From contig CAZJHG010000005.1 of assembly GCA_964545885.1 (NCBI GenBank), forward strand, positions 1 through 53,617: a DNA stretch of 53,617 bases, given 5' to 3'. A program made the translations under genes and the position numbers. The DNA comes from an uncultured Muribaculaceae bacterium (GTDB taxonomy: Bacteria > Bacillota_I > Bacilli_A > RF39 > UBA660). Positions 27,374-48,291 of the stretch are shown here, piece after piece (position 1 is the first letter of the stretch; each line of letters begins with the position of its first letter). The notes beneath the pieces were generated by a model that searched no databases, had not been told where the DNA came from, and worked only from the letters and a program-made list of their open reading frames with translations.

Positions 27374-27703
27374 ATGGCAGGTAATGCAGGAACTGGTGGT
27401 TCTTTCGTTTTTGAAGCTGATTCAGACAAATTGGAAGAAATTGCTAGTGCTATGAAGAAAAAAATAGAAAGTGCAAAGGGATTTAGAGATTCTATTGCCA
27501 ATACCATAACTACTTTGTCTACAGATGGTTCATGGTCAGGTGATGCAAGTGAACTTTTTGTCGAAAAAACAAATTCTTATAAAGATGAATTCGAAGAAAT
27601 GACTAAGTGTTTAGAAACATATGTTGAGGTTATAAAAGATGTTTCAGGATCTATTGATAGATTAAATGAAGAAATAAAAATTATTTGCGGAAGGTTGGAT
27701 TAA
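27374..27703 (+). CDS. WXG100-family T7SS substrate
   Basis: Start ATG 27374 (GAGGTG RBS). About 109 aa helix-turn-helix with central DGSWSGDAS. Confidence 0.85.
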   Translation: MAGNAGTGGSFVFEADSDKLEEIASAMKKKIESAKGFRDSIANTITTLSTDGSWSGDASELFVEKTNSYKDEFEEMTKCLETYVEVIKDVSGSIDRLNEEIKIICGRLD

Positions 27704-27704
27704 T

Positions 27705-28028
27705 ATGGGAAATCTTGGATATAATGAATCATTAGATGGTCATATTGCAAATATAGATAGTCTTTCTACAGAATTTTTAGGTGTTTTAAACGATATAAAT
27801 GGAATTGTTGGAGAATCTATAAATATTTCTGGTGGAGCTATTTATGGTGATGCGGCGGCTAGGTTAGAACAAGTATGGGACGAAAAATGCGGTTCTTTTA
27901 AAGAATATTATAATTTATACCAAAATTTTGTTTCTCAACTAACACAAATTAGTAATGCAAATAAAGAAGCACAAGCAGAAGCTGATTCTATTTATGTGGA
28001 AGCAGCTGAGACAGCAGATAATGCTTAG
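27705..28028 (+). CDS. WXG100-like protein, IYG variant
   Basis: 107 aa helical hairpin with central GGAIYGDAAARLEQVW...F..YY..YQ.F. Confidence 0.7.
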   Translation: MGNLGYNESLDGHIANIDSLSTEFLGVLNDINGIVGESINISGGAIYGDAAARLEQVWDEKCGSFKEYYNLYQNFVSQLTQISNANKEAQAEADSIYVEAAETADNA

Positions 28029-28044
28029 AAAGGATTGATTTTTA

Positions 28045-28260
28045 ATGGCAGCAATGAGAAGTCAAGTTTCACAATTGACAGAATATAGAGATGAACTAGT
28101 TAATATATCAAACAAACTAAATTCTTCTTTGATTTATAACACTGAGAATTCAGTAGCAGCTCTTTATGAAGAATTAAAGAAGTTTATTACTATATTAAAC
28201 AATAATATAACAAATATACAACAAAATGCATCTGCTATAGATAGTAATAAGAAATGGTGA
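28045..28260 (+). CDS. small helical-hairpin protein (putative Lap-type T7SS partner)
   Basis: 71 aa, two amphipathic helices, directly upstream of a large substrate-like gene. Confidence 0.55.
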   Translation: MAAMRSQVSQLTEYRDELVNISNKLNSSLIYNTENSVAALYEELKKFITILNNNITNIQQNASAIDSNKKW

Positions 28261-28264
28261 TAGT

Positions 28265-30622
28265 ATGTCAAGAATAAAAGTAGATAAAAATGAATTATCG
28301 TCAATAATTAGTCAACTAAAAAATACAAGAGATGGTTTATCTAGTGCATTATCAAGTGCGGTTTCTTCAGTACCTAAAAAAGTTGATTTATCGAGGTTTC
28401 CTTTCACATATACCGATAGGGTAAAAGAAACTGTATGGGATGAGGAAGAGTCTAAATATGTTGATAAATTTAAAACAGTTACTAGACATAGATATCAAAA
28501 TGAAGGAAGAAGATTTAATTCAGCTATCTCTAATATTAATCCACAATTACAGAATGTAACTAATGGTTTGAAATATTTAGATAATGTAATAAATGCGCTT
28601 AGTGAAATTCAAAGTGCAGTAAATGAATTTGAAGAGACAGATTATACTGGAAGGTTGGCGGCTTTTAGTTTTGATTTTAATTGGAAAAATCCAGGAGCTA
28701 CTCCAGCAATTGATTCGTTAGATAAAGATACTATTACGACTATTGCATTAGAAAATGGCTGGATAGAAACAGAAGAAGATTTCGATGAAGAAGATTACTA
28801 TAATTTATTGTCTTATTTAATGAATATTGTTGGTGTTGATAAATTTGAAGATTTAACTACGACTGAAGATATTCTTGCTAGTTTAGAGAATTTCTTTGAT
28901 GATGAAGATGGTGATGATGAATCTCCTGATGAGGAAGGAAAACCAGAGGATGGTGAAACATCTGAAGAGGGTGAAGAATCTGAAGGTGATGATGAAAAAT
29001 CTGAAGAAGATTCTGAATCAGAAGATGGTTCTGAAGAAGGAGAAGATACTGGAGAAGAAGAATCTGAATCTAGTGAAAGTGAATTAGGCGACAGTGAAGA
29101 AGATGGTGCTCCTAAGAATGAAGATGAAAAAGGTAATGTCGGTGAAAAAGGACAACCAGAAATAAAAGAAAATAAACCTTCGCCGGAAATTAATGATAAA
29201 ATTGTAACAAAAACCAATACTGTTGCTGATGCCGGAGAAAGAAAACAGGAAAAATCTCCTACAAATCAGCCTAGTTCAGGTGGCCAAAATGTTTATCATT
29301 CATCAGAAGATAAAAAGCAGCATAATGAAGAGAATGCTGTTAAGCATAATAATTATGAATCTATTTCTCAATCACATGTTGAGAAAAAAGAAGAAAATTT
29401 CGATAATAAACATAACGAAAATGTTCGACCTAAAGATGAATTTGATGCTTCAATTATGGATAAAGAAAATGTTGATGGTAAAATAGAAGCTTCTGATAAT
29501 ATTCCTAAGAATGATGTAAAAGCTGATGTAGGAATTAAGGATGTACTAAATAATAATGAGTCTAGTAATAATTCTAAGGATGATAATGTAGATTTACCAA
29601 AGATTAAGGATGATTTTAATAGAATTGATTCTTCAAATGGTACTGATAATTCTATAACAGATGATACTGGTGATGATAAAGTTGTTTCATCAGCTGTAGC
29701 TGGTGCTATAGGAATTGGTTCATTAATTGGTGGAAATACAGATGTTCCGACTATTTTACCAGGGTCTTCTGATCCGGTAGTAGGTGATTTTAACTATAAT
29801 AATTTACTTAATACAGAAACAATAACACCAAATGGTTCTGGTACTTATCCAAATAATAATATTGATAATAGTACTATTTATGGTAGTAATAATAACAACA
29901 ATAGTAACAATTATGACAATAACAATAAATATGATAATTATAATAATGTTGCTAATAAGTCTTCGAATTCTAATGAAGGAGTACTTGGTAAAGGTAAATC
30001 AAATTCAAATGGTTCTTCTATAAATAAAGAGAATGAAACAAATAATGTATCAGAAGGCTCAGTTCAATCTGGGACTCTAGGTGAAGCTTCTTATGTTGAA
30101 ATGTTAGCTAAAGAAGAGAAAAAATATAAAATTGCTACTGCAACATCAATATCTGCATCTTTATTGATGTTAGGATTTAAGTATATTGGAGTTATTGGAT
30201 GGTTAACTTTATTATTACTAATTGCGGCTATTATATTAGTTTATACAACTTATAGAGCTAGACATAAAAAGAAGAAAAAGAAACTTGAAGCTTTAATTAG
30301 AATAGAAAGAGAAAAATCTATATTTGAACGTGAGAAAGAAAAACATATGTCTTTAGAAGAAGCTGCTAGTGCTGAGGTAGTTGAAGAGACTTCTAGTGAA
30401 GCAGAAGAAACTTCAGAAAATATTCAATCAGAAGATATTCAAGAAGAAATAACTGAAAATAATGACATTCCAAAAGAAGAAGTTCAAGTACAAGAAATTG
30501 AACAAAATCTTCCAATACTTCCAGAGCAAAAAGAATTTCAAATGGCTGAAGAAGTTATTTACGGAGAAATGCCTCAAAAAAATCCTGAAATTGAAGTAAA
30601 TGAAGAGAATGTTGAAAATTAG
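28265..30622 (+). CDS. large acidic protein: LXG/WXG-like N-terminus, D/E/N-rich stalk, C-terminal TM hairpin
   Basis: N-terminal helices ending in FEETD (FxxxD); long D/E/S/N low-complexity middle; IATATSISASLLMLGF-IGVIGWLTLLLLIAAIILVY then RARHKKKKKK and an acidic tail. No Sec signal. Confidence 0.7.
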   Translation: MSRIKVDKNELSSIISQLKNTRDGLSSALSSAVSSVPKKVDLSRFPFTYTDRVKETVWDEEESKYVDKFKTVTRHRYQNEGRRFNSAISNINPQLQNVTNGLKYLDNVINALSEIQSAVNEFEETDYTGRLAAFSFDFNWKNPGATPAIDSLDKDTITTIALENGWIETEEDFDEEDYYNLLSYLMNIVGVDKFEDLTTTEDILASLENFFDDEDGDDESPDEEGKPEDGETSEEGEESEGDDEKSEEDSESEDGSEEGEDTGEEESESSESELGDSEEDGAPKNEDEKGNVGEKGQPEIKENKPSPEINDKIVTKTNTVADAGERKQEKSPTNQPSSGGQNVYHSSEDKKQHNEENAVKHNNYESISQSHVEKKEENFDNKHNENVRPKDEFDASIMDKENVDGKIEASDNIPKNDVKADVGIKDVLNNNESSNNSKDDNVDLPKIKDDFNRIDSSNGTDNSITDDTGDDKVVSSAVAGAIGIGSLIGGNTDVPTILPGSSDPVVGDFNYNNLLNTETITPNGSGTYPNNNIDNSTIYGSNNNNNSNNYDNNNKYDNYNNVANKSSNSNEGVLGKGKSNSNGSSINKENETNNVSEGSVQSGTLGEASYVEMLAKEEKKYKIATATSISASLLMLGFKYIGVIGWLTLLLLIAAIILVYTTYRARHKKKKKKLEALIRIEREKSIFEREKEKHMSLEEAASAEVVEETSSEAEETSENIQSEDIQEEITENNDIPKEEVQVQEIEQNLPILPEQKEFQMAEEVIYGEMPQKNPEIEVNEENVEN

Positions 30623-30649
30623 GATTTCCTAAAAAAGGAAGTCCTTTTT
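30621..30649 (+). terminator. terminator closing T7SS cassette 1
   Basis: AGGATTTCCT/AGGAAGTCCT stem followed by a T-run. Confidence 0.75.
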
Positions 30650-30650
30650 A

Positions 30651-30679
30651 TTGTAATTAATAAATATTTAAGTTATAAT
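30651..30679 (+). promoter_or_regulatory. sigma-A promoter of essC
   Basis: TTGTAA-N17-TATAAT. Confidence 0.6.
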
Positions 30680-30708
30680 TTTATATAGAATATGGGAGTG
30701 TGGCAGGT

Positions 30709-33700
30709 ATGAAAATAATGTTAATGGATGCAACCAAATTAGTTAATTTAATTTTACCTAAAGAAGTGTTTGGTAACTATTGGATTGTTAATGCCAACAA
30801 AGATAATTTAGTTAGTGTACAAGCCATTGATAATAGTTGGGTTTTAAAAAGCAATAGTGAAGTAAAGGTATTTAGAAATGGTACAGCTGTTGATGAAGCG
30901 TTGATGGAAAGCGAGAAATTTTATACCTTAAAAAATATTTTAACTGGTGAAAGCTATGTTGTTTATACTTGCCCGGTATATGATGAAAATTCTCTTCAAT
31001 TAAGACTTAATTATAACGTTAAAGCAAATGGTTCATCTTGGTATATAGGAAATAATGGATCACAGGATAATGCTTCTAATTTTCCTAATGTTATATCTTA
31101 TGAGCAACCTGGTATTGCTAGAAACCAATTAAAAATTGTTTTTAGTGATGAAAAATATGCTGTTTATAATTTAAATACTTCATTACCAATGTATGTTAAT
31201 GGAATTCCTTGTGAGGCTTCTGAATTAAGAAATGGCGACAATATATTTATGTTAGGATTTAAGTTATCTATAATTAATGATATCTTTTATGTAAATAATC
31301 CTAATAAGTTAGTAAAATTTGATTCTCAAGTATTTGCAATAAGACAACTTCCTACTTTGGATTACACTAAGATATCTAGTGAAGCGGATCCTGTTATAGA
31401 GATGTATAAAAAAGAAGATTATTTTTTAAAGCCGCCAAGATTCGATGAAAAAATTGAAGAAAAAGTTTTAGTAATCGATCCACCTCCAGCAGCTCAAAAT
31501 CAAGAAGAGATGCCAGCTATATTTACGATGGGTTCTATGATGATGATGGGTATGAGCTCTGTAATGTCTGGAATTATAACTCTTACAAATGTACTTAATG
31601 GAACTACAGAACTTAGTACTGCATGGTCATCTTTACTAACTGCAGCTGCTATGCTTACTTGTATGTTGATACTTCCTACTTGTAGTAAAATGTATAATAA
31701 ACATAAAAAGAGAATGTATGAAAGAAAAAGACAAGCAACCTATAGTATGTATGTTAATAAGAAACGTGAAGAATTCTTAACAGAAATGAAAAAAGAACAA
31801 CAAATTCTTATTGATAAATATATTCCTTTAAAAGATGTTGGAGATATAATACTTTATAAAAAACGTAATTTATGGGAGAAAAATACAAGTGATTATGATT
31901 TCTTATCATTGAGATTAGGTATTGGTTCTATTCCACCATTTTTTAAGATAAATTATCCAGACGAGCATTTTTCAATGGAAGATGAAGATAATTTGATGGG
32001 ATATTTAAGAGAACTTGAAAAAGAAACAAGTATGCTTGAAAATGTTCCAGTTACATATTCTTTTGTTGATAAATATATTACTGCTGTAATAGGTCAAAGA
32101 AATGTTACTAATCCTTTCTTAAGAGGATTACTATTACAGATATTTGCTTATCACGGATATGATTCATTAAAAGTTTGTGTTTTTACTAATAAAGAAAATG
32201 CAAAGTTTTGGGAAGATGTTAAAGATTGTCCTTATTTCTGGAATGATCAAAGAACATTAAGATTTTTTGGTACTAATAGTGATGAAATTAACCAGATTAG
32301 TTCTTATTTTGAAGAAATGTTAAGTTCTTTAAAGGAAGCTAACGAGGATAGAGGTAATTCTACTTCTAAAGAACCGTTAAAACTTAGTACTAGGTATTTG
32401 ATTATAACTGATGATATTGATTTGGTTAGAAATGTTAGTTTAATTCGTTCTTTAATTGAATCAGAGAGTTATATTGGTATGAGTTTAATTATATTTACTG
32501 AGAAATTAAATTCTTTACCTAATGAAGTTGAACATTTTATTAGTGTAGATGAACGTTCTGGTGGAGTATTTGAACGAGTTCTTACTGGTAGTAAAAGAAT
32601 TAATTTTGTACCTGATTTTATGTTTGGTTCTCTTGATAAATATGCATATGTTGTTTCTAATATTCCAATAGCCTTAAATGGTGGTAAATTCCAATTACCT
32701 GGTTCATATTCTTTCTTGGAAATGTATAATGTTTCTAATGTTAACCAATTGAATGCTCTTTCTAGATGGAAGGAAAGTGATCCTATTAACTCTCTTTCTG
32801 CACCAATAGGAATTAATGAATATGGAGATTTGTTTAAGTTGGATTTACATGAAAAGTCACATGGACCACATGGTTTAATTGCTGGTATGACTGGTTCTGG
32901 TAAGTCAGAATTTATTATTACTTTCATATTAAGTACTGCTCTTAATTACCATCCTTATGAAGTACAGTTTGTATTAATTGACTATAAAGGTGGTGGTTTA
33001 GCTGGTGCTTTTGAAAATAGAGAAACTGGTCTTAAATTACCACATTTAGCTGGTACAATAACAAACTTAGATGTATCAGAGATTAATCGTTCTTTGGCTT
33101 CTTTACAATCTGAGTTAAAAAGAAGACAAGCTATATTCAATAAAGCTAGAGATAAAGTTGGAGAATCAACTATAGATATATATAAATATCAGAGATTGTA
33201 TAGAAATGGTCAAGTTGATAGTCCTGTCGCACACTTATTTATTGTTTCAGATGAGTTTGCGGAGTTGAAAGCACAACAACCTGATTTCATGAACGAACTT
33301 ATTTCAACTGCACGTATCGGACGTTCATTGGGTGTTCACTTAATTTTGGCAACACAAAAGCCAAGTGGTGTAGTTAATGATCAAATTTGGTCAAACTCTA
33401 AATTTAAAGTATGTTTAAAAGTTCAAGATAGGTCAGATAGTCAAGAAATGATAAAAAGACCTGATGCTGCTTCTTTAAAAGAAACTGGAAGATTCTACTT
33501 ACAAGTTGGTTATGATGAATACTTTGCTTTAGGTCAGTCAGCTTGGACAGGAGCTCCTTACTATGAATCTGATGTAAGAAAGAAAAAAGTTGATAATACT
33601 ATAACTTTTGTTGATAATTTAGGAATGCCTTTTAAAATTGTTGATGATGGTAAACAAAATTTTACTGGTGTATTAAAGGGTGAAGAGTTGCCAAATATAA

Positions 33701-35367
33701 TGAAATATTTAGTTGATATAGCTAAAAAAGAAAACATTAATATTAAACAACTATGGTTAAATTCTTTGGCTCCTGTAATATTTATAGATGGTTTAAAAGA
33801 AAAATATAGTTATAAAAAAATCGATTGTGATATTAACCCAGTAGTTGGTGAGTATGATGCTCCAAATTTACAAAAACAAGGATTACTTACTTTACCGATT
33901 ACCCAAGGTGGTAACTGGATAATCTATGGTATGGCAGATAGTGGTAAAGAAGAAATGATTAACTCTTTAGTTTATTCATGTATTACTACATATTCACCTT
34001 TAGAGTTAAATATGTATTTGTTAGATTTTGGTGCTGAAACTCTTAAGATGTATAGAAAAGCTCCTCAAGTTGGTGATGTCATTTTACAAAATGATGTTGA
34101 TAAAGTTACTAACTTATGGAGAATGCTTCAAGAAAAGATTGCTAGTCGTAAAAAAATGTTTGCTGATTATGGTGGAGATTATATTTCTTATTCTAAAGCA
34201 ACAGGTAAAGTATTACCAAATGTTGTAGTTATAATTAATGGTTTTGAACTATATAATGAAAACTATGGAGATGCTACATTTGATTTACTGGCAACTATAA
34301 CTCGTGATTGTCAGAAATATGGTGTTTATTTTGTAATGACTTCTAATACTGCTAATGGTATTAGATCAAGGCTTGCTCAATACTTACCAAATCATCTAGT
34401 ATTCCAAATGAATGATAAATATGATTATAGTTCACTTCTTGGAAGAACGAAGTTAGAGCCTTCCGATATATCTGGTAGAGGTTTGGCAAAACTTGATGCT
34501 ATTTATGAATTTCAAGCAGCTGTGCCTACTGAGAAAGAAAACTTAAATACAATGGTTTTAGAAAAGATTAAAACTTTATGTGAAAAATATCCTAATGGTG
34601 CTCCGAAAGTACCTGTGTTACCTGAAGTTGTTACTATAGCTGATGTTGCTGATTCTGTAAAAGGTCTTGCTTCTGTACCAGTTGGTATAGAAAAAGAATC
34701 TTTGAAAGTAAGATGTTTAGACGTTACAAAGAGTCTTGTTCATGTTATTACAGGAATGGAATTTGGCGAAATAAAGACATTTGGTGGTATGTTTATTAAA
34801 GAAATTTCTAATATTGTAGGTAAGAATTGTTACGTATTTGACTTAGAAAAATTATATAAAGATTATTCTTCTAATGTATCTTATTATGATACAAATATTT
34901 TAGAAGAATTTAAAACGTTTGGTAAATTTGTTTTTGATTCATTTACTAAATTTAAAGAAGCTGGTTTTGATGCTAGTGCATTAAAGGATCAAGGAGAGTA
35001 TGTTTGCTTTATAGTTGGTATTGAAAAATTCAAAAATATCTTAGGCTCTGAATTTGAAGGTGCTTATGGTGGGTTATTGACTATGATTAAGTCGATGCCA
35101 AAATTCCATTTTATTTTAATCGATACATGTGATAACTTTAAAAAGCGTGAATTTGATTCATGGTATAAAGATACTATATCTGGTACTAAGGGATTATGGA
35201 TTGGTAATGGAATGGGTACTCAATATACTCTTAAATCAACATTATCAACTAGAGTATTAGGGGCTAAGGTCGATAAGAATTTCGGTTATTATGTAGATGG
35301 AAACACAACTGTTTTAGTTAAATATATTTCTGAAGTTGGTGAGGAAGAAGTTTATGAAACTTTATAA
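30709..35367 (+). CDS. essC: type VII secretion ATPase EssC/YukB
   Basis: Likely start ATG 30709. Two N-terminal FHA-like domains (LPKEVFGNYW; MYVNG...LRNGDNIF), two TM segments, DLHEKSHGPHGLIAGMTGSGKSE, DYKGGG, SDEFAELK, RIGRSLGVHLILATQKP. D2 (GMADSGKE) and D3 are degenerate. Confidence 0.95.
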   Translation: MKIMLMDATKLVNLILPKEVFGNYWIVNANKDNLVSVQAIDNSWVLKSNSEVKVFRNGTAVDEALMESEKFYTLKNILTGESYVVYTCPVYDENSLQLRLNYNVKANGSSWYIGNNGSQDNASNFPNVISYEQPGIARNQLKIVFSDEKYAVYNLNTSLPMYVNGIPCEASELRNGDNIFMLGFKLSIINDIFYVNNPNKLVKFDSQVFAIRQLPTLDYTKISSEADPVIEMYKKEDYFLKPPRFDEKIEEKVLVIDPPPAAQNQEEMPAIFTMGSMMMMGMSSVMSGIITLTNVLNGTTELSTAWSSLLTAAAMLTCMLILPTCSKMYNKHKKRMYERKRQATYSMYVNKKREEFLTEMKKEQQILIDKYIPLKDVGDIILYKKRNLWEKNTSDYDFLSLRLGIGSIPPFFKINYPDEHFSMEDEDNLMGYLRELEKETSMLENVPVTYSFVDKYITAVIGQRNVTNPFLRGLLLQIFAYHGYDSLKVCVFTNKENAKFWEDVKDCPYFWNDQRTLRFFGTNSDEINQISSYFEEMLSSLKEANEDRGNSTSKEPLKLSTRYLIITDDIDLVRNVSLIRSLIESESYIGMSLIIFTEKLNSLPNEVEHFISVDERSGGVFERVLTGSKRINFVPDFMFGSLDKYAYVVSNIPIALNGGKFQLPGSYSFLEMYNVSNVNQLNALSRWKESDPINSLSAPIGINEYGDLFKLDLHEKSHGPHGLIAGMTGSGKSEFIITFILSTALNYHPYEVQFVLIDYKGGGLAGAFENRETGLKLPHLAGTITNLDVSEINRSLASLQSELKRRQAIFNKARDKVGESTIDIYKYQRLYRNGQVDSPVAHLFIVSDEFAELKAQQPDFMNELISTARIGRSLGVHLILATQKPSGVVNDQIWSNSKFKVCLKVQDRSDSQEMIKRPDAASLKETGRFYLQVGYDEYFALGQSAWTGAPYYESDVRKKKVDNTITFVDNLGMPFKIVDDGKQNFTGVLKGEELPNIMKYLVDIAKKENINIKQLWLNSLAPVIFIDGLKEKYSYKKIDCDINPVVGEYDAPNLQKQGLLTLPITQGGNWIIYGMADSGKEEMINSLVYSCITTYSPLELNMYLLDFGAETLKMYRKAPQVGDVILQNDVDKVTNLWRMLQEKIASRKKMFADYGGDYISYSKATGKVLPNVVVIINGFELYNENYGDATFDLLATITRDCQKYGVYFVMTSNTANGIRSRLAQYLPNHLVFQMNDKYDYSSLLGRTKLEPSDISGRGLAKLDAIYEFQAAVPTEKENLNTMVLEKIKTLCEKYPNGAPKVPVLPEVVTIADVADSVKGLASVPVGIEKESLKVRCLDVTKSLVHVITGMEFGEIKTFGGMFIKEISNIVGKNCYVFDLEKLYKDYSSNVSYYDTNILEEFKTFGKFVFDSFTKFKEAGFDASALKDQGEYVCFIVGIEKFKNILGSEFEGAYGGLLTMIKSMPKFHFILIDTCDNFKKREFDSWYKDTISGTKGLWIGNGMGTQYTLKSTLSTRVLGAKVDKNFGYYVDGNTTVLVKYISEVGEEEVYETL

Positions 35368-35370
35368 TTG

Positions 35371-35403
35371 AGAAAAGATGACTTTTGTTATCTTTTCTTT
35401 TTT
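35371..35403 (+). terminator. essC terminator
   Basis: AGAAAAGATGAC/GTTATCTTTTCT stem followed by a T-run. Confidence 0.75.
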
Positions 35404-35410: not shown

Positions 35411-35439
35411 TTGACTTTGAATTTGAATTAGAGTATTAT
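35411..35439 (+). promoter_or_regulatory. sigma-A promoter of the esaB-WXG-WXG unit
   Basis: TTGACT-N17-TATTAT. Confidence 0.6.
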
Positions 35440-35539: not shown

Positions 35540-35797
35540 ATGAATAATAATAAGGTCTGTGTAGATTTGATTGTACCTGGCATTGAAGAAAGATACAATG
35601 TTTTTATTCCTGTTAATAAGAAGACTATTGAAACTATATTCCTATTAAATAAAGCTATTAATGATATGACTAGTGGAGCGTACGCCATGAATGAACATTT
35701 ATCATTAATAAATGCTGATGACGGAACTGTTTATGATGTTGATAATACTTTTTTGGAAAACAACATTTTAAATGGTGCAAAACTAATATTATTATAG
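35540..35797 (+). CDS. esaB: EsaB/YukD ubiquitin-like T7SS accessory protein
   Basis: 85 aa with V.VDLIVP....YNVFIP.NK.I..I..LL...L.E.NILNGAKLILL ubiquitin-like pattern; next to essC. Confidence 0.8.
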   Translation: MNNNKVCVDLIVPGIEERYNVFIPVNKKTIETIFLLNKAINDMTSGAYAMNEHLSLINADDGTVYDVDNTFLENNILNGAKLILL

Positions 35798-35807: not shown

Positions 35808-36107
35808 ATGAATAATTTTGAGTATGCACAAGCTGGTATGGAGGAAGCTATTAGCGATTTAACTGCTGCTAAAACTAAAGCTTCTGAAAGCTTTGATGAA
35901 ATTAAAGCAGAGTTAAGAGATAATTTATTATCTGCAGGTATGAGCGGTTCTACTGCTGATGTTCTTTTAGAAACTTTTGAAAAAGAAGTAACTGAACCTG
36001 CTGAAAACTATTTACTAAATGCTGAACACTTTATTAAGCAAAATACAGAAGTTAAAGCTAAAATGGACGATAATAGTTCAACTAATATTAGTATTGCTTC
36101 TATGTAA
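35808..36107 (+). CDS. WXG100-like protein, MSG variant
   Basis: 99 aa helical hairpin with central LSAGMSGSTADVLLETF. Confidence 0.65.
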   Translation: MNNFEYAQAGMEEAISDLTAAKTKASESFDEIKAELRDNLLSAGMSGSTADVLLETFEKEVTEPAENYLLNAEHFIKQNTEVKAKMDDNSSTNISIASM

Positions 36108-36147
36108 TATTTATCTATGATTATTTAGTGAAAGGAATGAATAAGAA

Positions 36148-36464: not shown

Positions 36465-36485
36465 TACTGCGTTAATGACGCAGTA
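36465..36485 (+). terminator. terminator after the esaB-WXG pair
   Basis: TACTGCGT-TAATG-ACGCAGTA. Confidence 0.7.
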
Positions 36486-38258: not shown

Positions 38259-38393
38259 TTTAAACTATTTTATTTTTGAATGATGATGTGCTTTTGGTAC
38301 TTGTTGGTTTTAAATTCTAAAATGATATTATTTAATGATTTTTGTCATTTTGGATTGATTAATATTAAATAAATAGTTTAATAGTTTTGGAAG

Positions 38394-38654: not shown

Positions 38655-38658
38655 GTAT

Positions 38659-40983: not shown

Positions 40984-41388
40984 ATGAAAGAAAAGTATTT
41001 ACCAATTGGAACAGTAGTTTTATTAAAAGGTGGAAGAAAAAGAGCTATGATTACTGGTTTCTGTTCTGTAGCTCAAGAAAATCAAGAAAAAATATATGAT
41101 TATAGTGGTTGTGTATATCCTGAAGGATATTTGAGTTCTAATCAAGTTTGTTTATTTGACCATGACCAGATTGAAAAAATATTCTTTTTAGGATATGAAG
41201 ATGAAGAAGAAAAGGCCTTTAAAGATAAACTAAATAAAATAGTTGCTTCTATTGAAGGTGGAGATAATTCTTCAGCTTCTGTTTCAAACGAAAGCATGGT
41301 TGATGAAAGTACTGGTACTGTTGCTTCTAATAATGTTGATGAAGAAACGGCTTCTTCTGGTACTTTTACGCCTTTTGCTAGTAATTAA
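40984..41388 (+). CDS. DUF4176 family T7SS accessory protein
   Basis: KYLPIGTVVLLKGG.K..MITG...YDYSGC.YPEG...CLFDH.QI.KI.F.GY. Confidence 0.92.
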   Translation: MKEKYLPIGTVVLLKGGRKRAMITGFCSVAQENQEKIYDYSGCVYPEGYLSSNQVCLFDHDQIEKIFFLGYEDEEEKAFKDKLNKIVASIEGGDNSSASVSNESMVDESTGTVASNNVDEETASSGTFTPFASN

Positions 41389-41461
41389 TTGATTTGGGTT
41401 GTTAATTTTTATTTATTTAAAAATTTAATGACAATAAAAAAAAATGATGTTATAATCATTG

Positions 41462-41534
41462 TTATAAGGGTATGATAATTGTTTAGGGGTGTTTGGAATA
41501 ATCAAGCATGTTTCTTTGATTTATATTCTTATAA
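41462..41534 (+). promoter_or_regulatory. putative structured 5' leader, copy 2
   Basis: Begins 5-6 nt after TG-T-TATAAT (41451-41456). TTATAAGGGTATGA pairs with TTATATTCTTATAA (41521-41534); inner stem AGGGG-TGTTTG / CAAGCA-TTTCT. Confidence 0.45.
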
Positions 41535-41556
41535 TAAATATTATGGAGGTGAAAAT

Positions 41557-41853
41557 ATGGCAAGTTCATTAATTATCGATACTGATTTAGTTAACACTTC
41601 TGGTAGTGGTATTAACGCTAGTGGTGTAAATTTCCAAAACGAAGTAGCAAGTTTTAAATCTCACGTTAGTGCAATTTTATCTATTTGGACTGGTGCTGAT
41701 GCTGATGAATTTGGGACTGTTGCTGAAGATGTAGCAGCTTTACTTGATAAAGCTTCTATTACTGTACAAGAAGTTGGTGAACATCTTGTTAACACAGCAA
41801 CTGCTATGGATCAAACAGTTGAAGAAAACAAAGGCAGAATGTCTGCTGTATAA
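41557..41853 (+). CDS. WXG100-family T7SS substrate
   Basis: True start ATG 41557 (GGAGGTG RBS). 98 aa with central ILSIWTGADADEF. Confidence 0.88.
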   Translation: MASSLIIDTDLVNTSGSGINASGVNFQNEVASFKSHVSAILSIWTGADADEFGTVAEDVAALLDKASITVQEVGEHLVNTATAMDQTVEENKGRMSAV

Positions 41854-41883
41854 GAATGAATATAAGAAAGGAAAGTGATTTCA

Positions 41884-42177
41884 ATGGCAGTTAATACTTT
41901 AGATTATGAATCATATAAAAGTGAGCATTCAGCTATTAATACATGCATCAATAATATTGAAGCTGAGTTGAATACTGCAAATACAAAATTAAATGAAGCT
42001 ACTGCTGATGCTTCAGGTCAATGGGCTTCTACTGATGTTGATGAATGGAATCAAATTTATAAAGATATAAACAGTAAGTTCGAAAGACTTCAAGCTTTAA
42101 TGCAAGCATCAGGAGTATCTGCAGAAGCTACACAAGCTACTGAAAGTGCTTATAGTGGTTTTACTACTTCTGCATAA
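41884..42177 (+). CDS. WXG100-like protein, WAS variant
   Basis: Start ATG 41884. 97 aa helical hairpin with central ASGQWASTDVDEW. Confidence 0.7.
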   Translation: MAVNTLDYESYKSEHSAINTCINNIEAELNTANTKLNEATADASGQWASTDVDEWNQIYKDINSKFERLQALMQASGVSAEATQATESAYSGFTTSA

Positions 42178-42212
42178 TTTTATGTACTACATTAAGTAGT
42201 ACATTGTAAATT
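42176..42212 (+). terminator. hairpin / terminator after the second WXG pair
   Basis: ATGTACTAC-ATTAA-GTAGTACAT core with outer AATTT/AAATT pairing. Confidence 0.55.
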
Positions 42213-42262
42213 ACTAAACACTTAGTGATTTACAATGGATTATTTAAAAAGGTGGTGTTTAT

Positions 42263-43219
42263 ATGGGCTGGGATTTTACAGCTGATAGCGATATACAAAA
42301 TAGCTTGGCTAGCAGTTTAGATACTGCAGCAGATAATTTTGATGAACGTGTTGATGCTTTGTATTCGGAAATTGATTCTATGGGCTCAAGTGGAAATTGG
42401 ATTGGAGAAGATTATGATGCTTTTAATACTGGTGTTCACGGATATGAAAGCGCTTTAGATGATTTGTCTGATGGAATTAGAATGTATGCAGAACATTTTA
42501 GAAAAATGTCCACCGGTACTGAAACTCTTGCTTCAGATTTAATTGCAATTGTTCAAAATTTGACTGGTACAGCAGGCGGTAGTAGTGGTACTGGCGGGTC
42601 CGGTGGTGGTACTGGTGGCGGAACTACCTCAGAAGGTGGAGATGGCTTAAACGCCATAAATGCCCCTGCTAATGATGGTCAGGGCTCTAGTGCTAATGGT
42701 GATAATAGTGTTGATGCAGTTGCTGAAACTGATGAACCGGGTTTCTGGGATAAATAGGGACAGAGATATGCCGATGATTGGGGCGAACTTTCGGGTTCAG
42801 TATCTGAACTTTGGTCTGGAGCTGATGGTTTATGGTCAGGTGTTGGTGCTGTAGTTGGCACTGTTGGAGAAGGTGCTTTATTTCTTGTGGATGGTGCTGT
42901 CGACACTCTTGAAACTGCTTCTGATATGATTGGTACTGGATGGAATTGGCTTTTAGATGCAGGTAATACAAGAGCTACTTCAGGAGGCTATGATTATTGG
43001 AGCACTGTTGGTGAAGATTTTGCTGAAAACTGGGATTTTTCAACTGCTGATAATTTTGCGGAAGGTGTTGGTGTAGCGCTTACAGGTACAGTTAGAACTG
43101 TGGTAGATGCTGCTCAACTTGTAGGAAATGTTGCTGTTGATGCAGTAGAAGTTGTAGGAGATGTTGCCGATACTGTTGTTGGTTGGGGGAAATCTCTTGT
43201 TAAATGGATATTTGATTAA
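42263..43219 (+). pseudogene. WXG100-domain putative effector interrupted by one in-frame TAG (42755-42757)
   Basis: N-terminal SGNWIGEDY domain and Gly/Thr linker. The frame stays open after the TAG (GQRYADDWGELSG...) and runs into ORF 42887-43219 in the same frame, giving 318 codons plus stop. Confidence 0.75.
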
Positions 43220-43239: not shown

Positions 43240-43602
43240 ATGACAGAAAAAGATCGCAAGGTGCTTGGACTTGAAAGATGTGTTATTCTTCAGGCTATAG
43301 CTGAAAATTATTTGATTAGAACGAAAGGTAAGAAAATTTCTGATGAATATCCTGGATTAGAAGAAAAATATGGCGTTTTAGCTGATCAGCATATTCATTT
43401 GTTGAAGGAATTCCTTATGGATGAGTATAAAGCAAGAAATCTTGATTTGAATGAATGTATAGTGAAATCTGGTGAAAGTGTAATTCTTGAAGATAAATTA
43501 ACTGACTATGAGAAGAATGTTTTGATTAGGGAAGCTGATATTGTTTTGTTAACTTATTGCACTGTTGAAGATAGAAAAAAAGTATTTTTAAAAAATAAAT
43601 AG
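43240..43602 (+). CDS. small cytoplasmic hypothetical protein, candidate immunity factor
   Basis: Start ATG 43240 (GAAGGTGG RBS). Non-WXG protein directly after the putative effector; the function is positional inference only. Confidence 0.55.
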   Translation: MTEKDRKVLGLERCVILQAIAENYLIRTKGKKISDEYPGLEEKYGVLADQHIHLLKEFLMDEYKARNLDLNECIVKSGESVILEDKLTDYEKNVLIREADIVLLTYCTVEDRKKVFLKNK

Positions 43603-43620: not shown

Positions 43621-44940
43621 ATGGCTGATAGAACATTTAAATATGATGCCATTGCTGGTAGTTATCAAGAAATGAATAATATTAATAATGATATCGCTAC
43701 TATTTTAAGTGATATTAATCGAGAAGTAGAGAATAAGGTAAATGTGTGTGATGAAGCTATTTTTGGTGATTTAGGTAAGCAAATGTTACTCGATTGGGAT
43801 AATACATCTGCTAATTTTGATAGCTTCGTTAGTAAGTTTAATAATTGGTCTACCTTAGTTACTCAAGCCGCAGGTAATTATAGTCAGTTTGAATCAGATA
43901 TAAGTGGTTTTAAACAAGCTAATCCATTAGGTGTTACTAGTGGTGGAATTACTGATGCTTATACAAACACTGGTTTTTATTCTAATAGCTATTCCTTAGA
44001 TGAAATTAACCAATTATCTTCGTTGGCCCAATTTTATGAATTAACAGGTGCTACTTATGTTGATACTGGTATGGTATCTTTTGCTAAGAAAAATAAAATA
44101 TATAATATTGTAACTGATGGTCTTACTATAGTGTCTACTGCTTGTTCTGCCTTTGCTATATTTAAAGGTTTATCTGCTGCTTCCTCTACTGTAAGTGCTG
44201 CAAATAGTGCTGCTAGTGCTAGTGCAGAAACTGCTGCAAATTCAGCAGCGTTAAATTTAGCTAGTAAATCAGCTGGAGGTTTTGCATCAAGCAATTTAGC
44301 AAGAGCAGTTGGAGGAGGAAAAATTTTAAACTCTGGCTTTGTGTCTGGTTCTATTAAAGCCGCACAGAACGCTGCTATGACAGCTACTTGGTATGCAAAA
44401 TTTGCTGGTACGTATGCCGCTAATATTGCCAAAGGTACTATTGGTAGTTCCGCTTTTTGGAGTTCAGTTAATTCAGGCATTCAATCTGCTGGTTTGGCTA
44501 CTGGCGTAGTTGCTTCATCTTCTGGTGTGCTTTCTAGTATTGGTTATGCTATTGGTTCTAATTATGATCCTACTAAATATGCATCCGGTTATGAAAATTC
44601 CCTTATTGCTACGGGGACTTCTCTTACAATTGATAATCAAGATTATGTTTTTGTTGGATCAACTAGTAATGGTACTAATATATTTTCTAATGAAAATAAT
44701 GAAATATTCTATTATGGTGAAAATGGAATACAGCATGCTACAGTTACAAACTCTTCCGGTACTAACGTAAATGCTACTTTTGATAATATAGGTGGTCAAT
44801 TCCAATTGAATTTAGGTAATGAAGTAGTTACAGAAAATGATAGTTTGAATACTTCGTTTGATGTTACTTACGATGAATATTATGATTCAATTGCTAACGA
44901 TATTTCTACTCATCCAGATATTGTAGAAGAAAATAATTAG
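43621..44940 (+). CDS. putative T7SS effector with IFG-variant WXG-like N-terminal domain
   Basis: Start ATG 43621 (GGAGGT RBS). EAIFGDLGKQMLLDWDNTSANFDSFVSKFNNW, YSQFE (YxxxE), an Ala/Gly/Ser-rich hydrophobic core and a beta-rich C-terminus. Confidence 0.72.
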   Translation: MADRTFKYDAIAGSYQEMNNINNDIATILSDINREVENKVNVCDEAIFGDLGKQMLLDWDNTSANFDSFVSKFNNWSTLVTQAAGNYSQFESDISGFKQANPLGVTSGGITDAYTNTGFYSNSYSLDEINQLSSLAQFYELTGATYVDTGMVSFAKKNKIYNIVTDGLTIVSTACSAFAIFKGLSAASSTVSAANSAASASAETAANSAALNLASKSAGGFASSNLARAVGGGKILNSGFVSGSIKAAQNAAMTATWYAKFAGTYAANIAKGTIGSSAFWSSVNSGIQSAGLATGVVASSSGVLSSIGYAIGSNYDPTKYASGYENSLIATGTSLTIDNQDYVFVGSTSNGTNIFSNENNEIFYYGENGIQHATVTNSSGTNVNATFDNIGGQFQLNLGNEVVTENDSLNTSFDVTYDEYYDSIANDISTHPDIVEENN

Positions 44941-44956
44941 TTTAGGAGGAAAATAT

Positions 44957-45388
44957 ATGGGATATGTAACAAATAATGGTACCTATGTAGAGGATGATGG
45001 TACTACTACAAAAAAAACACTTTATTCTTGTAAACAAAAAGGGTTACAATATACTACTATTGGTGATGATATTAAATCTGACTTTGATTTTTTATTAAAA
45101 ACAGGTAGTATTGCTCAAAACTTGGATTCTATGTTAAAAGAGTTGAATATTGCTTCTAGTAATACTAGTGCTTTTCTCTTTGAAAATGGTAGCTCTGTTA
45201 ATTCTATTGATGAAGCTTATCAAGAAATTGAAACTGAAGTTGAAAAGTTAAAGGATTTATTACAGACTTTGCATGATGCTTTTATCACTGATATTGATAA
45301 TGTTAATGCTGAACTTGAAGTTAATTTTGGACATTGGATAGGAACAAAAGCTACTGCTGGTAGAACTGTTGTTACTGAAAATAAGTGA
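44957..45388 (+). CDS. helical hypothetical protein (putative Lap-type partner)
   Basis: 143 aa; two helices around SAFLFENG; directly upstream of a large substrate-like gene. Confidence 0.55.
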   Translation: MGYVTNNGTYVEDDGTTTKKTLYSCKQKGLQYTTIGDDIKSDFDFLLKTGSIAQNLDSMLKELNIASSNTSAFLFENGSSVNSIDEAYQEIETEVEKLKDLLQTLHDAFITDIDNVNAELEVNFGHWIGTKATAGRTVVTENK

Positions 45389-45403
45389 TAGGAGGTTATT
45401 TAT

Positions 45404-47539
45404 ATGGCAGTTGTAAAAATTAATAGTGCTGAACTTGAAGCTATTGAAGAACAAATTGTAAAAGCTAGAGAATATATAGATGATGCTGAGAGTGAATGGG
45501 GCGAAAATTTTGATAATTTGTATTATGCTTTTATAGAAAATGGTTTTTTAGATGATTTATACGAAGATGCAAAGAGTAATTATTATTCGTTAAAAAAATG
45601 GGGAAATGCTCTTTCGTGTACTGCTGGTGGAGCAATTCTTGGTTTGAATTTTGGACCTATTGGTGGAATTGTTGGTGCAGTTATTGGTGCAATTTTTGGT
45701 ATTACTATGGCAGTTATAACTGATCCTGTATGGCTAGAGTATTCTAAAGATGCTTTTATAAATTTACTTACTAATTGTTATTATGGTAATGATGATAGTT
45801 ATATTCAACTTGTTAATGTAGCGACGATGCTTTATAATTGTCAGGTATCTATGGAAAAAATTAAAACTTTAGTAAATGATTATCAGCAATTATATGCTAA
45901 TTTAAATGCTACTGCTGATGCTATGGGAGTAGTTACTACTTTAGCTAGTGATGGTACTACTGTTTTAAGTATTGATACTGAGGTAACAATTGATGGTCAA
46001 ACTGTTCAATTATCGACAAGTGAAGCTTTAAATGCTTTATATACTTATGAAAATGTTGTTATGTCTGCTGAATTTGAGGGTGAATATTTAGCTAGTTTGG
46101 GATATGAAGTTGATTTTAATTCAATTGTTTCAAACGCTAATTCATTTATGACAAGTACTATTTCTAGTGGATTATATTCTCATGAGTTTATTGAAGGAAT
46201 ATTACCTACTTATACTCCGGATTCTGATGCTGCTACTGATAATGTCGTTAATGCTTTAGAAATGGATGCTTCTGGTGTTCAATCATTACTAAATAGTGTA
46301 AGTAATTTAAATATTTTTCAAGGCTTGGGATTGGTTGGTGCTTCTATGCTAGCTGGTTCCGTTAGTAAACCTGCAGAAGATGATAATGGCTCTGATGGTG
46401 GAAATAACGGCGGAAATAACGGCGGAAATAACGGCGGAAATAACGGCGGAAATAATGGTGGGAATAATGGTGGAAATAACGGTGGAAATAACGGCGGAAA
46501 TAATGATAGCATCGATGATAAAGATGAAGAAGATAAAACTGTTGATATTAAGTTAACTGAATTGATTGAATTAGATATTCCTGATGCACTTGATGAATTA
46601 GCTATTGATGGTGAAGATATTGACGAGATGGCTAGAGAACTATTCTTTGAAAAGTATCAAGGTGCTGATTTGACTGCTCGTAGACAAGAAGATTATGATG
46701 CTTTTGAGTTATTATATAATAGAGATGATAAATCAGAATTAATTGCCTTATTTGAAGGTATTGGTTATGGTGCAGCTGAAGCTGTAGGACTTCTTACTGA
46801 TAAAGAAGTTGCTCTTCAAGCATATATTTTAAATTCTCAAAATAAAGAAATGTTAGAAATTGCAAATGGACTTGCAGCTGATTATGGAATAACAGATTTT
46901 AAATCTTCATATAGTGATGCTCCTGATTATCTTGATTTTGTTACTGGTGATGGACAGGCTGCATTGACTGATTATTCTAATAGTAAAGAAGTTGTAGAAG
47001 CTAAAACTGCTAGAAATGAAGCTAAAGAGGCTTATTCAAAAGCGGTTACTGATGCAAATGAATCTATTTCTAATGCTAATCAAGCTAAGAGTGATTTGGA
47101 AGCATTGAAAGCTGAAATTGAGAGTACTTCTGGTACTGATAGTTCTAAATGGACTGCAGAACAAGCTGAGAAATATAACGAGGCTGTTGATGCTTATAAT
47201 GAAGCTGTTCAAGAAGCTAATGATAAGATGGCTTTAGTTGATGAAGCTAAGGAAACTTATACTGAGGCTGTAGATTCTTATGAAGCTGCTAAAACTGAAT
47301 TTATTAATACTATAAAGAGACAAGTTCAAGAGGGTAATGGTTCTATTTTACCTGGTGAAGCTTTGATTGATTCTCCTGGTAGTTCATCTAATGGTGGTTC
47401 ATCTAGTGGTGGTTCTTCTAATGGAAACTCTTTTAGTGGTAGTACATTTGAGAGCTCTGATGCCTCAAGTGGTGACTCTAATAATGATACTAGTGATAGT
47501 GATTTAATTGGTGGCTTCTTGGATTTGGCTGGTAAATAA
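45404..47539 (+). CDS. large acidic putative T7SS substrate with a glycine zipper (paralog of 38659-40965)
   Basis: GGAILGLNFGPIGGIVGAVIGAIFG glycine zipper, (GGNN)9 linker, and a C-terminal domain closely matching that of 38659. Confidence 0.72.
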   Translation: MAVVKINSAELEAIEEQIVKAREYIDDAESEWGENFDNLYYAFIENGFLDDLYEDAKSNYYSLKKWGNALSCTAGGAILGLNFGPIGGIVGAVIGAIFGITMAVITDPVWLEYSKDAFINLLTNCYYGNDDSYIQLVNVATMLYNCQVSMEKIKTLVNDYQQLYANLNATADAMGVVTTLASDGTTVLSIDTEVTIDGQTVQLSTSEALNALYTYENVVMSAEFEGEYLASLGYEVDFNSIVSNANSFMTSTISSGLYSHEFIEGILPTYTPDSDAATDNVVNALEMDASGVQSLLNSVSNLNIFQGLGLVGASMLAGSVSKPAEDDNGSDGGNNGGNNGGNNGGNNGGNNGGNNGGNNGGNNGGNNDSIDDKDEEDKTVDIKLTELIELDIPDALDELAIDGEDIDEMARELFFEKYQGADLTARRQEDYDAFELLYNRDDKSELIALFEGIGYGAAEAVGLLTDKEVALQAYILNSQNKEMLEIANGLAADYGITDFKSSYSDAPDYLDFVTGDGQAALTDYSNSKEVVEAKTARNEAKEAYSKAVTDANESISNANQAKSDLEALKAEIESTSGTDSSKWTAEQAEKYNEAVDAYNEAVQEANDKMALVDEAKETYTEAVDSYEAAKTEFINTIKRQVQEGNGSILPGEALIDSPGSSSNGGSSSGGSSNGNSFSGSTFESSDASSGDSNNDTSDSDLIGGFLDLAGK
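46397..46504 (+). repeat. 12-bp coding tandem repeat x9 (GGNN)
   Basis: GG(C/T)GG(A/G)AATAA(C/T) repeated nine times over 108 bp. Confidence 0.95.
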
Positions 47540-47560
47540 TAAAATGGAGGGTTGTATAGT

Positions 47561-47998
47561 ATGGGAAAACTATTACCGATAGGTACAGTTGTTAGATTAA
47601 CAGATGGTAGCAAAAAGTTAATGGTTACAGGTTATTATTCAAAAGTACCTAATGAAAATAAAATATATACGTATAATGCTTGTGTTTTTCCTGAGGGATT
47701 TATGGAAAATACATTTTGCTTATTCGATGCAAACCAAATTGATGAGGTATTATATTTAGGTTTGGAAAATGATGATTTTAAACAATACCTTCAGAATCTT
47801 GATTCTAGATTCGATGTATCGTCCGGGGTTATTTCAGCTGATACTAGTATTGGTAGCTTAGGTGAAACTAAGAGAAGGGGACGTGTTCCAAAAGCTCCTA
47901 CTAAACCTTTATCTGCTTCTGAAATGCGTGCAAAATATGGGGTTAATAAAGTTTCTGGCAATCAATCTGAATCTGTAAACTCAAGTGATTTTGTTTAG
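47561..47998 (+). CDS. DUF4176 family protein with a basic C-terminal extension
   Basis: Start ATG 47561. LLPIGTVVRL.DG.KKLMVTGY...YTYNAC.FPEG...LFDA.QI.EV.YLG. Confidence 0.9.
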   Translation: MGKLLPIGTVVRLTDGSKKLMVTGYYSKVPNENKIYTYNACVFPEGFMENTFCLFDANQIDEVLYLGLENDDFKQYLQNLDSRFDVSSGVISADTSIGSLGETKRRGRVPKAPTKPLSASEMRAKYGVNKVSGNQSESVNSSDFV

Positions 47999-48009
47999 GA
48001 GTGGTTATG

Positions 48010-48291
48010 ATGAAAGAGAAATATTTACCAATTGGTACTGTCGTTCTTCTTGAAGGTGGTACTAAACAAGTTATGATAACAGGTTTTTGTGCTGTTGCTG
48101 ATTCTAAAAAAGATAAAATTTTTGATTATCGTGGTTGTCCTTTTCCTGAAGGAGTTATGGAGTCGGCTGGTGTAGCATTATTTGACCATAGTCAAATAAG
48201 AGAAATTTGTCATATAGGATTTGAAAATCCTGAATCAATTGACTTCTCAGATAGATTATTAATTATCGAAGAGAAACTTGCAAATAAATAA
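48010..48291 (+). CDS. DUF4176 family protein
   Basis: KYLPIGTVVLLEGG.K.VMITG...FDYRGCPFPEG...LFDH.QI. Confidence 0.92.
   Translation: MKEKYLPIGTVVLLEGGTKQVMITGFCAVADSKKDKIFDYRGCPFPEGVMESAGVALFDHSQIREICHIGFENPESIDFSDRLLIIEEKLANK

Follow-up and report, generated by a model that had tools for sequence, protein, structure and literature searches.

What a cassette of four genes, present three times around the gene of a type VIIb secretion system (T7SSb) motor ATPase, may encode is the question raised by contig CAZJHG010000005.1 of assembly GCA_964545885.1, deposited as an uncultured Muribaculaceae bacterium. The window analyzed was this whole stretch of 53,617 nucleotides (nt), which belongs to a metagenome-assembled genome (MAG) of 1.54 Mb and 66% completeness. 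In the following, p1 to p4 denote the four positions of a cassette, Wa and Wb two lone gene pairs of the same locus, and G with a number the genomes of relatives. Our analysis indicates that the cassettes are three ancient paralogous modules. The explanation that we prefer, at a probability of about 45%, is that they are T7SSb substrate and targeting-factor modules, in which p1, p2 and p3 would be partners of the N-terminal domain of p4 and a DUF4176 protein would serve the linker of p4.

Three Paralogous Cassettes Around EssC

A block of genes on a single strand, the forward one, occupies 27.3–48.3 kb and surrounds EssC, a protein of 1555 amino acids (aa). The order is ThrRS, cassette 1, EssC, an open reading frame (ORF) of 85 aa, pair Wa, cassette 2 with one DUF4176 gene, pair Wb and cassette 3 with two DUF4176 genes, and the G+C content is ~28–36% across the region. 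The genes and motifs on which an earlier reading of the DNA sequence alone (hereafter the sequence-only reading) had built the cassette, namely WSG/IYG, WQG/VYG and WIG/IFG in p1/p2 and LIY/LLF/FLF in p3, were all found in their places.

Correspondence between the positions was assessed with hhalign, all against all, using one alignment per position and cassette built from the syntenic loci of six sister species, with 3–7 species in an alignment. For p1 the probability was 99% between cassettes 1 and 2 and between cassettes 2 and 3, and 96% between cassettes 1 and 3; the respective values for p2 were 98, 98 and 92–93%. The N-terminus of p4 gave 97% for cassettes 1 and 2, 55–58% for cassettes 2 and 3 and 29–36% for cassettes 1 and 3, and a 22-sequence p4 profile aligned the N-termini of cassettes 2 and 3 at 94% (E 1.2e-7) over helices 1–2 and at 80% over helices 3–4. 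For p3 the probability was 93–94% between cassettes 1 and 2 (P 4.3e-7, 64 columns), 1–3% between cassettes 2 and 3 and 6–8% between cassettes 1 and 3. Off-position pairs stayed mostly below 35%. In addition, plain hidden Markov models (HMMs) of p1 and p2 recovered the copies of the other cassettes among all genome ORFs at E 1e-5 to 1e-17, and BLAST within the window linked the p1 genes, the p2 N-termini, and the p4 genes of cassettes 2 and 3. Between cassettes the families are far apart, at 20–30% sequence identity. The order p1–p2–p3–p4(–DUF4176) is kept in 7/7 genomes, i.e., the window and six other species.

Taken by their profiles, the three cassettes are paralogous by position, and the repeat goes far beyond chance. 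The sequence-only reading had proposed a four-gene cassette repeated three times and an all-versus-all profile alignment by position as one way to check it; run here, this comparison bears out the repeat for p1, p2, the N-terminal domain of p4 and the p3 of cassettes 1 and 2, but not for the p3 of cassette 3.

The Short Helical Protein p3 and Its Coupling to p4

The p3 of cassette 1 (28045–28260) is a helical protein of 71 aa with an LIY turn and no Pfam or NCBIfam match, and that of cassette 2 (38409–38654; listed ORF start GTG 38394) is a helical protein of ~81 aa with an LLF turn. The p3 of cassette 3 (44957–45388) has 143 aa and an FLF turn. Homology of this protein to the other two was rejected, as hhalign never exceeded 12% even with 21- and 14-sequence profiles; the best alignments nonetheless set the LLF and FLF turns in register. 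Its AlphaFold2 (AF2) model, with a mean predicted local distance difference test (pLDDT) score of 81.7, has a helical hairpin (residues 37–67 and 83–124, joined by an FLFENG turn) that packs on a small beta-sheet made of the N- and C-terminal segments, and Foldseek returned no PDB fold match for it (E >1). The description of p3 as a short hairpin gene with a shared turn therefore holds structurally for cassette 3, as the model has the hairpin and the turns are present, but homology does not follow. The family of the cassette 2 p3 was found in 22 of the 27 genomes of the genus and that of the cassette 3 p3 in 15 of 27. Elsewhere in the source genome (C2:15599–15913, reverse strand), a few kb from a second EssC, an ORF gave a weak match to the cassette 3 p3 profile (E 3.9e-4). 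Sequence-profile searches of PDB with p4, p2 and p3 profiles gave generic coiled-coil noise only.

In all 15 cassettes inspected, either the final codons of p3 contain the Shine-Dalgarno sequence of p4, or the genes overlap or stand 2–38 nt apart; these cassettes comprise the three sites of the window (28249–28273, 38643–38667 and 45377–45412) and 12 sites of relatives. In cassette 3 the two genes share a frame, with TGA TAG between them. It appears that p3 and p4 would be translated as a coupled pair. TGA ends all three p3 genes of the window and just 5 of the 44 ORFs taken as genes, and the use of this rare stop at p3 is due to the embedded Shine-Dalgarno sequence of p4, e.g., in TGG AGT TGA. 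A role of this TGA as a recoding signal was ruled out, since the Shine-Dalgarno sequence (GGAGTTGA) explains it and relatives use TAA or TAG. Genetic code 4 was rejected as well: read with table 11, ThrRS and EssC are intact, and TGA serves as a stop.

The coupling bears on the possibility that each cassette merely holds four independent T7SS substrates, clustered by co-duplication and forming no specific complex. The divergence between the cassettes would agree with such an origin, and so would the entry of another family into position 3 of cassette 3. However, the gene order has remained fixed through three ancient duplications in all seven genomes, the coupling of p3 to p4 extends to every cassette inspected, and one study describes all known T7SS substrates as exported in the form of helical multimers (PMC10730906). 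We consider independent substrates improbable.

The Large Acidic Protein p4 and DUF4176

The p4 proteins have 785 aa in cassette 1 (28265–30622), 768 aa in cassette 2 (38659–40965) and 711 aa in cassette 3 (45404–47539). They are acidic, as had been said of them, with isoelectric points of 4.05–4.31 for all three (4.31 in cassette 1 and 4.05 in cassette 2). Those of cassettes 2 and 3 share 51% identity over ~267 aa (residues 412–677; BLAST, E 8e-81). In the cassette 2 protein, an acidic linker of low complexity joins the helical domain at the N-terminus to a conserved helical one at the C-terminus, and no membrane segment was predicted. The p4 of cassette 1 has in common with the others only the N-terminal ~110–150 residues (92.7–97% by profile). 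Its N-terminal helical domain is followed by a stretch rich in D, E and N, a hydrophobic anchor at ~629–660, a basic patch and an acidic tail, and the last three elements are kept in the orthologues that lie at the equivalent site of G004 and G013. In this cassette the membrane anchor replaces the conserved C-terminal domain, and no DUF4176 gene follows.

The AF2 model of the cassette 3 p4 has a mean pLDDT of 62.5, and for this reason only its confident parts are informative. At the N-terminus, helices 8–66 and 109–162 flank a glycine-zipper hairpin, and a mixed middle domain comes next. A disordered linker of Gly, Asn and acidic residues (320–381) then leads to a short acidic/hydrophobic stretch that is conserved, and the confidently modeled C-terminal domain (385–644) closes with a helical hairpin of 50–60 residues. 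Foldseek found no PDB match at E <0.1. At 50% identity, the p4 family forms ~130 clusters in a set of 1.84 billion representatives, and none of these clusters is named; the C-terminal ~260 aa are the most conserved part and the middle is variable. For 22 members of the p4 family, the 25 most frequently matched families do not include LXG. One member gave a sub-threshold match of Pfam T7SS_signal on the C-terminal hairpin (E 2.7e-5, 24.6 bits, cut-off 27). A relationship of this hairpin to p1, p2, p3 or the W proteins was tried and rejected, there being no profile similarity.

The DUF4176 genes named by the sequence-only reading proved to be such, with matches to PF13780 far over the cut-off: one of the small class follows the p4 of cassette 2 (40984–41388, E 2e-28) and two follow that of cassette 3 (47552–47998, E 9.2e-21, and 48001–48291, E 2.7e-23). 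According to a study of these chaperones, also known as Ltc, they bind the disordered amphipathic mid-region of T7SSb toxins (PMC12478183).

The WXG100 Protein p1 and the WXG-Like Protein p2

By HMM match and the presence of W-x-G at the turn, p1 is a member of WXG100 (PF06013), with the copy of cassette 3 below the cut-off. The p1 of cassette 1 (27356–27703, probable start ATG 27374, motif GSWSG) matched Pfam WXG100 at E 2.5e-6 (28.1 bits, cut-off 27.3) and NCBIfam WXG100_ESAT6 at E 4.7e-9 with 36.3 bits, under the 44.85-bit cut-off. For the p1 of cassette 2 (36549–36848, SWQG) the Pfam match had E 1.3e-7 and 32.2 bits, and for that of cassette 3 (42263–42757, with an interrupted frame that extends to 43219; NWIG) E 4e-4 and 21.0 bits. 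W and G are invariant in 11/11 p1 sequences.

The p2 proteins are that of cassette 1 (27705–28028, 107 aa, AIYG), which has no C-terminal extension, that of cassette 2 (36867–38258, SVYG), with a C-terminal domain of ~300 aa, and that of cassette 3 (43621–44940, AIFG; listed ORF start TTG 43606), with a hydrophobic C-terminal region rich in Ala, Gly and Ser and a transmembrane-like segment at residues 168–186. No Pfam match, WXG100 (PF06013) included, was obtained for any of 11 members, and the p2 of cassette 1 matched TIGR03930 weakly (E 9e-4) and under the cut-off. The alignment of 11 sequences revealed the motif (I/V/L/F)-(Y/F)-G with an invariant Gly, and a downstream Trp. From these features we treat p2 as WXG-like and not as a member of WXG100. 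In cassette 3, p2 also carries YxxxE at the end of helix 2 (YSQFE, residues 92–96 counted from TTG 43606), which is kept in 5/5 sequences and which the p2 proteins of the other two cassettes lack.

Extra C-terminal domains on p1 or p2 in cassettes 2 and 3 had been pointed out in the sequence-only reading, and the comparison of species agrees: the extensions are optional and range from none to about 700 aa. Across species p2 has 107–794 aa (107–231 in cassette 1, 137–794 in cassette 2 and 263–444 in cassette 3), and the p1 of cassette 3, with 164 aa here, has 430–688 aa elsewhere, with unrelated C-terminal domains. For the C-terminal part of the cassette 2 p2, 10 relatives were found among 5.8 billion clusters, none with a Pfam domain. 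Since the C-terminal domains differ between species, the ends of p1 and p2 are probably co-exported cargo, and the two proteins would often be more than helpers. A shuffling of cargo between positions was considered and rejected, as the p2 cargo of the window had no significant similarity to the cargo on the cassette 3 p1 of two relatives (E 0.047 and 0.10).

In the window, the p1 frame of cassette 3 spans 318 codons, with a WXG100 domain, a Gly/Ser linker and a Gly-rich amphipathic C-terminal domain, and it is split by a single in-frame TAG (42755–42757), after which a further 153 codons are open. The orthologues are uninterrupted in four sister species and their C-terminal domains differ; the TAG could mark a pseudogene or a true truncation, or else be a variant of the assembly. 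Between the p1 and p2 of cassette 3 there is an ORF of 120 aa (43240–43602) without a family match in Pfam searches, and no separate ORF of at least 65 aa is found at this place in G023, G018, G009 and G005. It is possibly an immunity gene for the p1 cargo. A non-coding gap of ~150 nt (38259–38408) separates the p2 and p3 of cassette 2, compared with 3–64 nt in relatives, and may be what is left of a small gene since lost, e.g., an immunity gene.

Lone Pairs and Putative Transcription Signals

The three cassettes had been listed correctly by the sequence-only reading, but two pairs resembling p1/p2 had been left out. Pair Wa (35808–36456) encodes two helical proteins of ~100 aa (35808–36107 and 36148–36456), the second of which is p2-like, and pair Wb (41479–42177) encodes a WXG100-like protein with WTG (41479–41853) and a partner of 100 aa (41875–42177). 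By hhalign, Wa2 aligned with p2 at 90–92% (cassette 1) and 92–95% (cassette 2) and with Wa1 at 75%, while Wb1 aligned with the cassette 3 p1 at 95–96% and Wb2 with the cassette 3 p2 at 33–54%. As Wa and Wb are also p1/p2-like, the locus holds five such pairs, three of them with p3 and p4 after.

Stem-loops follow the p4 of cassette 1 (30621–30645, a terminator-like hairpin that closes the cassette and has a promoter-like site after it at 30651–30679), EssC (35370–35399), Wa2 (36465–36485, palindromic) and Wb2 (42202–42237, 16 bp). The best promoter-like site (41428–41456) precedes Wb1, and a weaker one (35411–35439) lies upstream of the 85-aa ORF. All of these signals are consensus matches. 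They would agree with the lone pairs and the cassettes being transcribed as separate units, and the stem-loops of the lone pairs together with the site at 41428–41456 would suit short transcripts made in abundance, with some transcription continuing into the cassettes.

The lone pairs bring in a different view, that each cassette encodes two heterodimers, an Esx-type p1·p2, often with cargo, and a PE/PPE-like pair of p3 and the p4 N-terminus served by DUF4176, the pairs being exported separately or co-dependently and DUF4176 acting as EspG does for PPE. Two of the five p1/p2-like pairs stand alone, each with a stem-loop after it and with a strong (41428–41456) or weaker (35411–35439) promoter-like site in the region; p3 and p4 form the tightest coupled pair; and p3 and the p4 N-terminus co-diverge between cassettes, with p1 and p2 remaining close across all three. 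In cassette 3, moreover, p1 has WxG and p2 the conserved YxxxE at the end of helix 2, a split that is typical of Esx heterodimers, but YxxxE is missing from the p2 of cassettes 1 and 2. A distant relative of p4, P0091, is found without p2, although a WXG100 gene is still joined to its p3-like and p4 genes. Furthermore, the four genes are inherited and lost as a block, and characterized large T7SSb effectors all need at least two small N-terminal partners (PMC12478183; PMC10653861), whereas p3 by itself would make only one. We regard two heterodimers per cassette, the main rival of the preferred explanation, as possible but less likely.

Secretion Machinery and Distribution

EssC (30700–35367) matched the equivalog model TIGR03928 (T7_EssCb_Firm) with 971.8 bits (cut-off 778.4) and Pfam FtsK_SpoIIIE at E 9.5e-43, which identifies the region as part of a T7SSb-type secretion locus. 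The 85-aa ORF that follows (35540–35797) had no Pfam or NCBIfam match, though it is syntenic in every relative examined; it stands at the position of EsaB/YukD and is so placed by position only. EssC orthologues were found in 27/27 genomes of the genus, most of which have a second EssC at ~30% identity; in the source genome this paralogue is entered at C2:9124–11214. EssB/YukC and EsaA (PF10140, TIGR03929) were over the cut-off in 0/27 genomes, with a positive Bacillus subtilis control; EssA was not searched for. The genus may run a reduced or re-equipped T7SSb.

A profile search of genome contigs with the p4 alignment gave one locus, and the relatives were taken from genome searches; one homologue carries the source label Candidatus Coprovivens and one relative is a rabbit-gut MAG. 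The p4 family is present in 23/25 genomes of the genus and was absent from all 16 genomes taken from other families in the class. G023, G018, G009 and G005 carry cassettes 2 and 3 in synteny, and all of them lack cassette 1. The latter stands between ThrRS and EssC only here, in G004, in G013 and probably in G003, i.e., in ~4–5 of 27 genomes, and G013 has cassettes 1 and 2 without cassette 3. As cassettes 1 and 3 are present or absent entire between species, the four-gene units appear to be gained or lost whole.

The distant homologue P0091 (L030 10001–12820, ENA contig NODE_68) is preceded only by a WXG100 gene of 105 aa and a p3-like gene of 66 aa, and no p2, DUF4176 or EssC gene was found within 10 kb. 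Its C-terminus repeats a '...KWS/KWT...' hairpin unit ~4 times and is followed by glucosaminidase and GH25 lysozyme genes, and it lies far from any EssC on a 61-kb contig.

With EssC in all 27 genomes and EssB/YukC and EsaA recognized in none, p4 might instead be thought a part of the apparatus or envelope (a stalk, anchor or adaptor) in place of EssB, EsaA and EssA, with the small proteins as assembly factors. Its conserved and non-polymorphic C-terminal domain, the lack of an immunity gene, the membrane-anchored p4 of cassette 1 directly upstream of essC and the wide presence of the p4 family in the genus are in line with this. However, cassettes 1 and 3 are not core, given that the former occurs in ~4–5/27 genomes and the p3 of the latter in 15/27, and two genomes of the genus have EssC without a detectable p4. 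The p4 of cassette 2 lacks a predicted membrane segment, and a substrate-like helical N-terminus with small helical genes upstream and DUF4176 downstream is the layout of known effectors. It is very unlikely, in our view, that p4 is a component of the machine.

A Proposed Composite Targeting Module

Under the preferred explanation, that of substrate and targeting-factor modules, p1, p2 and p3 would bind the long N-terminal helical domain of p4 and, by analogy with EsxB, EsxC and EsxD on EsaD and with Lap pairs on LXG toxins, may build together with it a rod-like composite signal for recognition by EssC. The DUF4176 proteins would hold the disordered acidic mid-region of p4 in the cytoplasm, and p4 itself would retain a C-terminal helical domain (cassettes 2 and 3) or a membrane anchor (cassette 1). 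We infer all of the protein-protein contacts, the export and the cargo function. The position of the three DUF4176 genes directly after p4 and the disorder of the modeled linker at 320–381 argue for this explanation, as do the WXG100 and p3-like genes that still stand directly before p4 in P0091 and the stem-loops and promoter-like sites that bracket the cassettes.

Several observations weigh against it. The p3 of cassette 3 appears, from its profile, to be of another family or to have diverged past recognition. At two places in the locus, pairs resembling p1/p2 stand without p3 and p4, and p1/p2 may therefore act as independent Esx-like heterodimers. In a genus without recognizable EssB and EsaA the known docking steps may not apply. 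Judged by its alignment, p4 is conserved C-terminally and varies in its mid-region, the reverse of what a polymorphic toxin shows, and the ORF list of the window holds no candidate immunity ORF after p4, where DUF4176 and then the next module follow. No LXG (PF04740) match was obtained at E ≤0.1 for the three p4 proteins of the window, p1–p3 had no Pfam match to Lap1–4 (DUF3130, DUF3958, DUF5344 and DUF5082), and neither FxxxD nor YxxxD/E is a conserved motif of p1, of p3 or of the N-terminus of p4. Among p1–p3, the YxxxE of the cassette 3 p2 is the single conserved case of [YFH]xxx[DE]. To our knowledge, the known Lap and Esx helpers carry no cargo.

The sequence-only reading had gone further and assigned to each cassette one dedicated complex of four subunits. 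Against an obligate complex of this kind stand the lone pairs and P0091, which has only the WXG100, p3-like and p4 genes. It also counts against it that p3 and the p4 N-terminus have diverged jointly, setting cassette 3 apart from the other two, a split not seen in p1 and p2. A bolder form of the composite module would divide the roles, with swappable cargo on p1 and p2 and with p4 contributing a conserved C-terminal delivery or attachment domain and being the client of DUF4176, all in a system without EssB and EsaA. We think this rather unlikely; if it is true, the composite rod would export up to three C-terminal domains at once, which is undescribed for any T7SS.

The current view of T7SSb recognition has one effector with two or three helpers that are free of cargo. 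Here the layout is kept in three old copies, two of the "helpers" have domains that vary with the species, and it is the large protein that is conserved. Should the four proteins indeed form a complex, a single targeting rod would transport several cargoes, and helper and effector would no longer be clearly distinct. Furthermore, the catalogue of T7SS substrates would gain three unnamed families (p2, p3 and p4), and a gut Bacilli genus that has EssC, often twice, and no recognizable EssB or EsaA bears on what the minimal T7SSb machine is.

Comparison with Known Systems

A complex larger than the LXG-Lap1-Lap2 trimer had been inferred in the sequence-only reading; such complexes are already known. 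In Staphylococcus aureus, EsaD binds three small partners, EsxB, EsxC and EsxD, and has the chaperone EsaE (PMC10653861), and TelE forms an assembly of seven proteins (10.64898/2026.03.12.711312). The gene layout of EsaD-EsxBCD is indeed found here: a large protein with a helical N-terminus is encoded after three small helical genes, one of them a true WXG100, and a chaperone gene belongs to the module, which adjoins essC. In contrast, the proteins showed no detectable sequence relationship with EsaD, EsxC or EsxD, DUF4176 stands in the place of EsaE as the chaperone, and two of the small partners often have C-terminal domains of their own, of up to ~700 aa. The large protein ends in a conserved domain and not in a nuclease toxin, no immunity gene follows it, and the module exists in three paralogous copies.

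Effectors need at least two small targeting factors, such as those of the Lap families (10.1101/2023.07.21.550046). The LXG-Lap-Ltc system of Streptococcus intermedius, in which the factors are Lap1-Lap2 or Lap3-Lap4, shares with the present locus the small WXG100-like genes upstream, a DUF4176 protein and a disordered mid-region (10.1101/2023.07.21.550046; PMC12478183). Unlike that system, the cassettes gave no LXG, DUF3130, DUF3958, DUF5344 or DUF5082 match and do not conserve the FxxxD of Lap1; they have three upstream genes and not two, and their DUF4176 is of the small class and lies downstream of the large gene instead of between the lap and toxin genes. A further likeness is to the T7SS substrates of reverse arrangement, TslA-TlaA1-TlaA2 (PMC10730906), as in cassettes 2 and 3 a long, confidently predicted helical hairpin terminates p4, but p4 also has a substrate-like helical N-terminus and its hairpin is without WXG-like similarity. 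The p4 hairpin as a targeting domain is only a lead.

Mycobacterial pe-ppe-esxB-esxA with EspG provides another precedent for four-gene substrate modules duplicated as units, and it is the model for the view of two heterodimers per cassette. It resembles the cassettes in joining a WXG100 pair, a short and a long helical protein and a chaperone, and in being multiplied in the genome; it differs in that it is a T7SSa system with another gene order, and no sequence relationship links the cassettes to PE/PPE. Judged by sequence and gene order, the system resembles EsaD-EsxBCD or LXG-Lap-Ltc in layout and belongs to neither family. What is new in it, next to these systems, are three undescribed families (p2, p3 and p4), the triplication of the unit, the variable C-terminal domains on WXG-type "helpers" and a host genus without recognizable EssB/EsaA.

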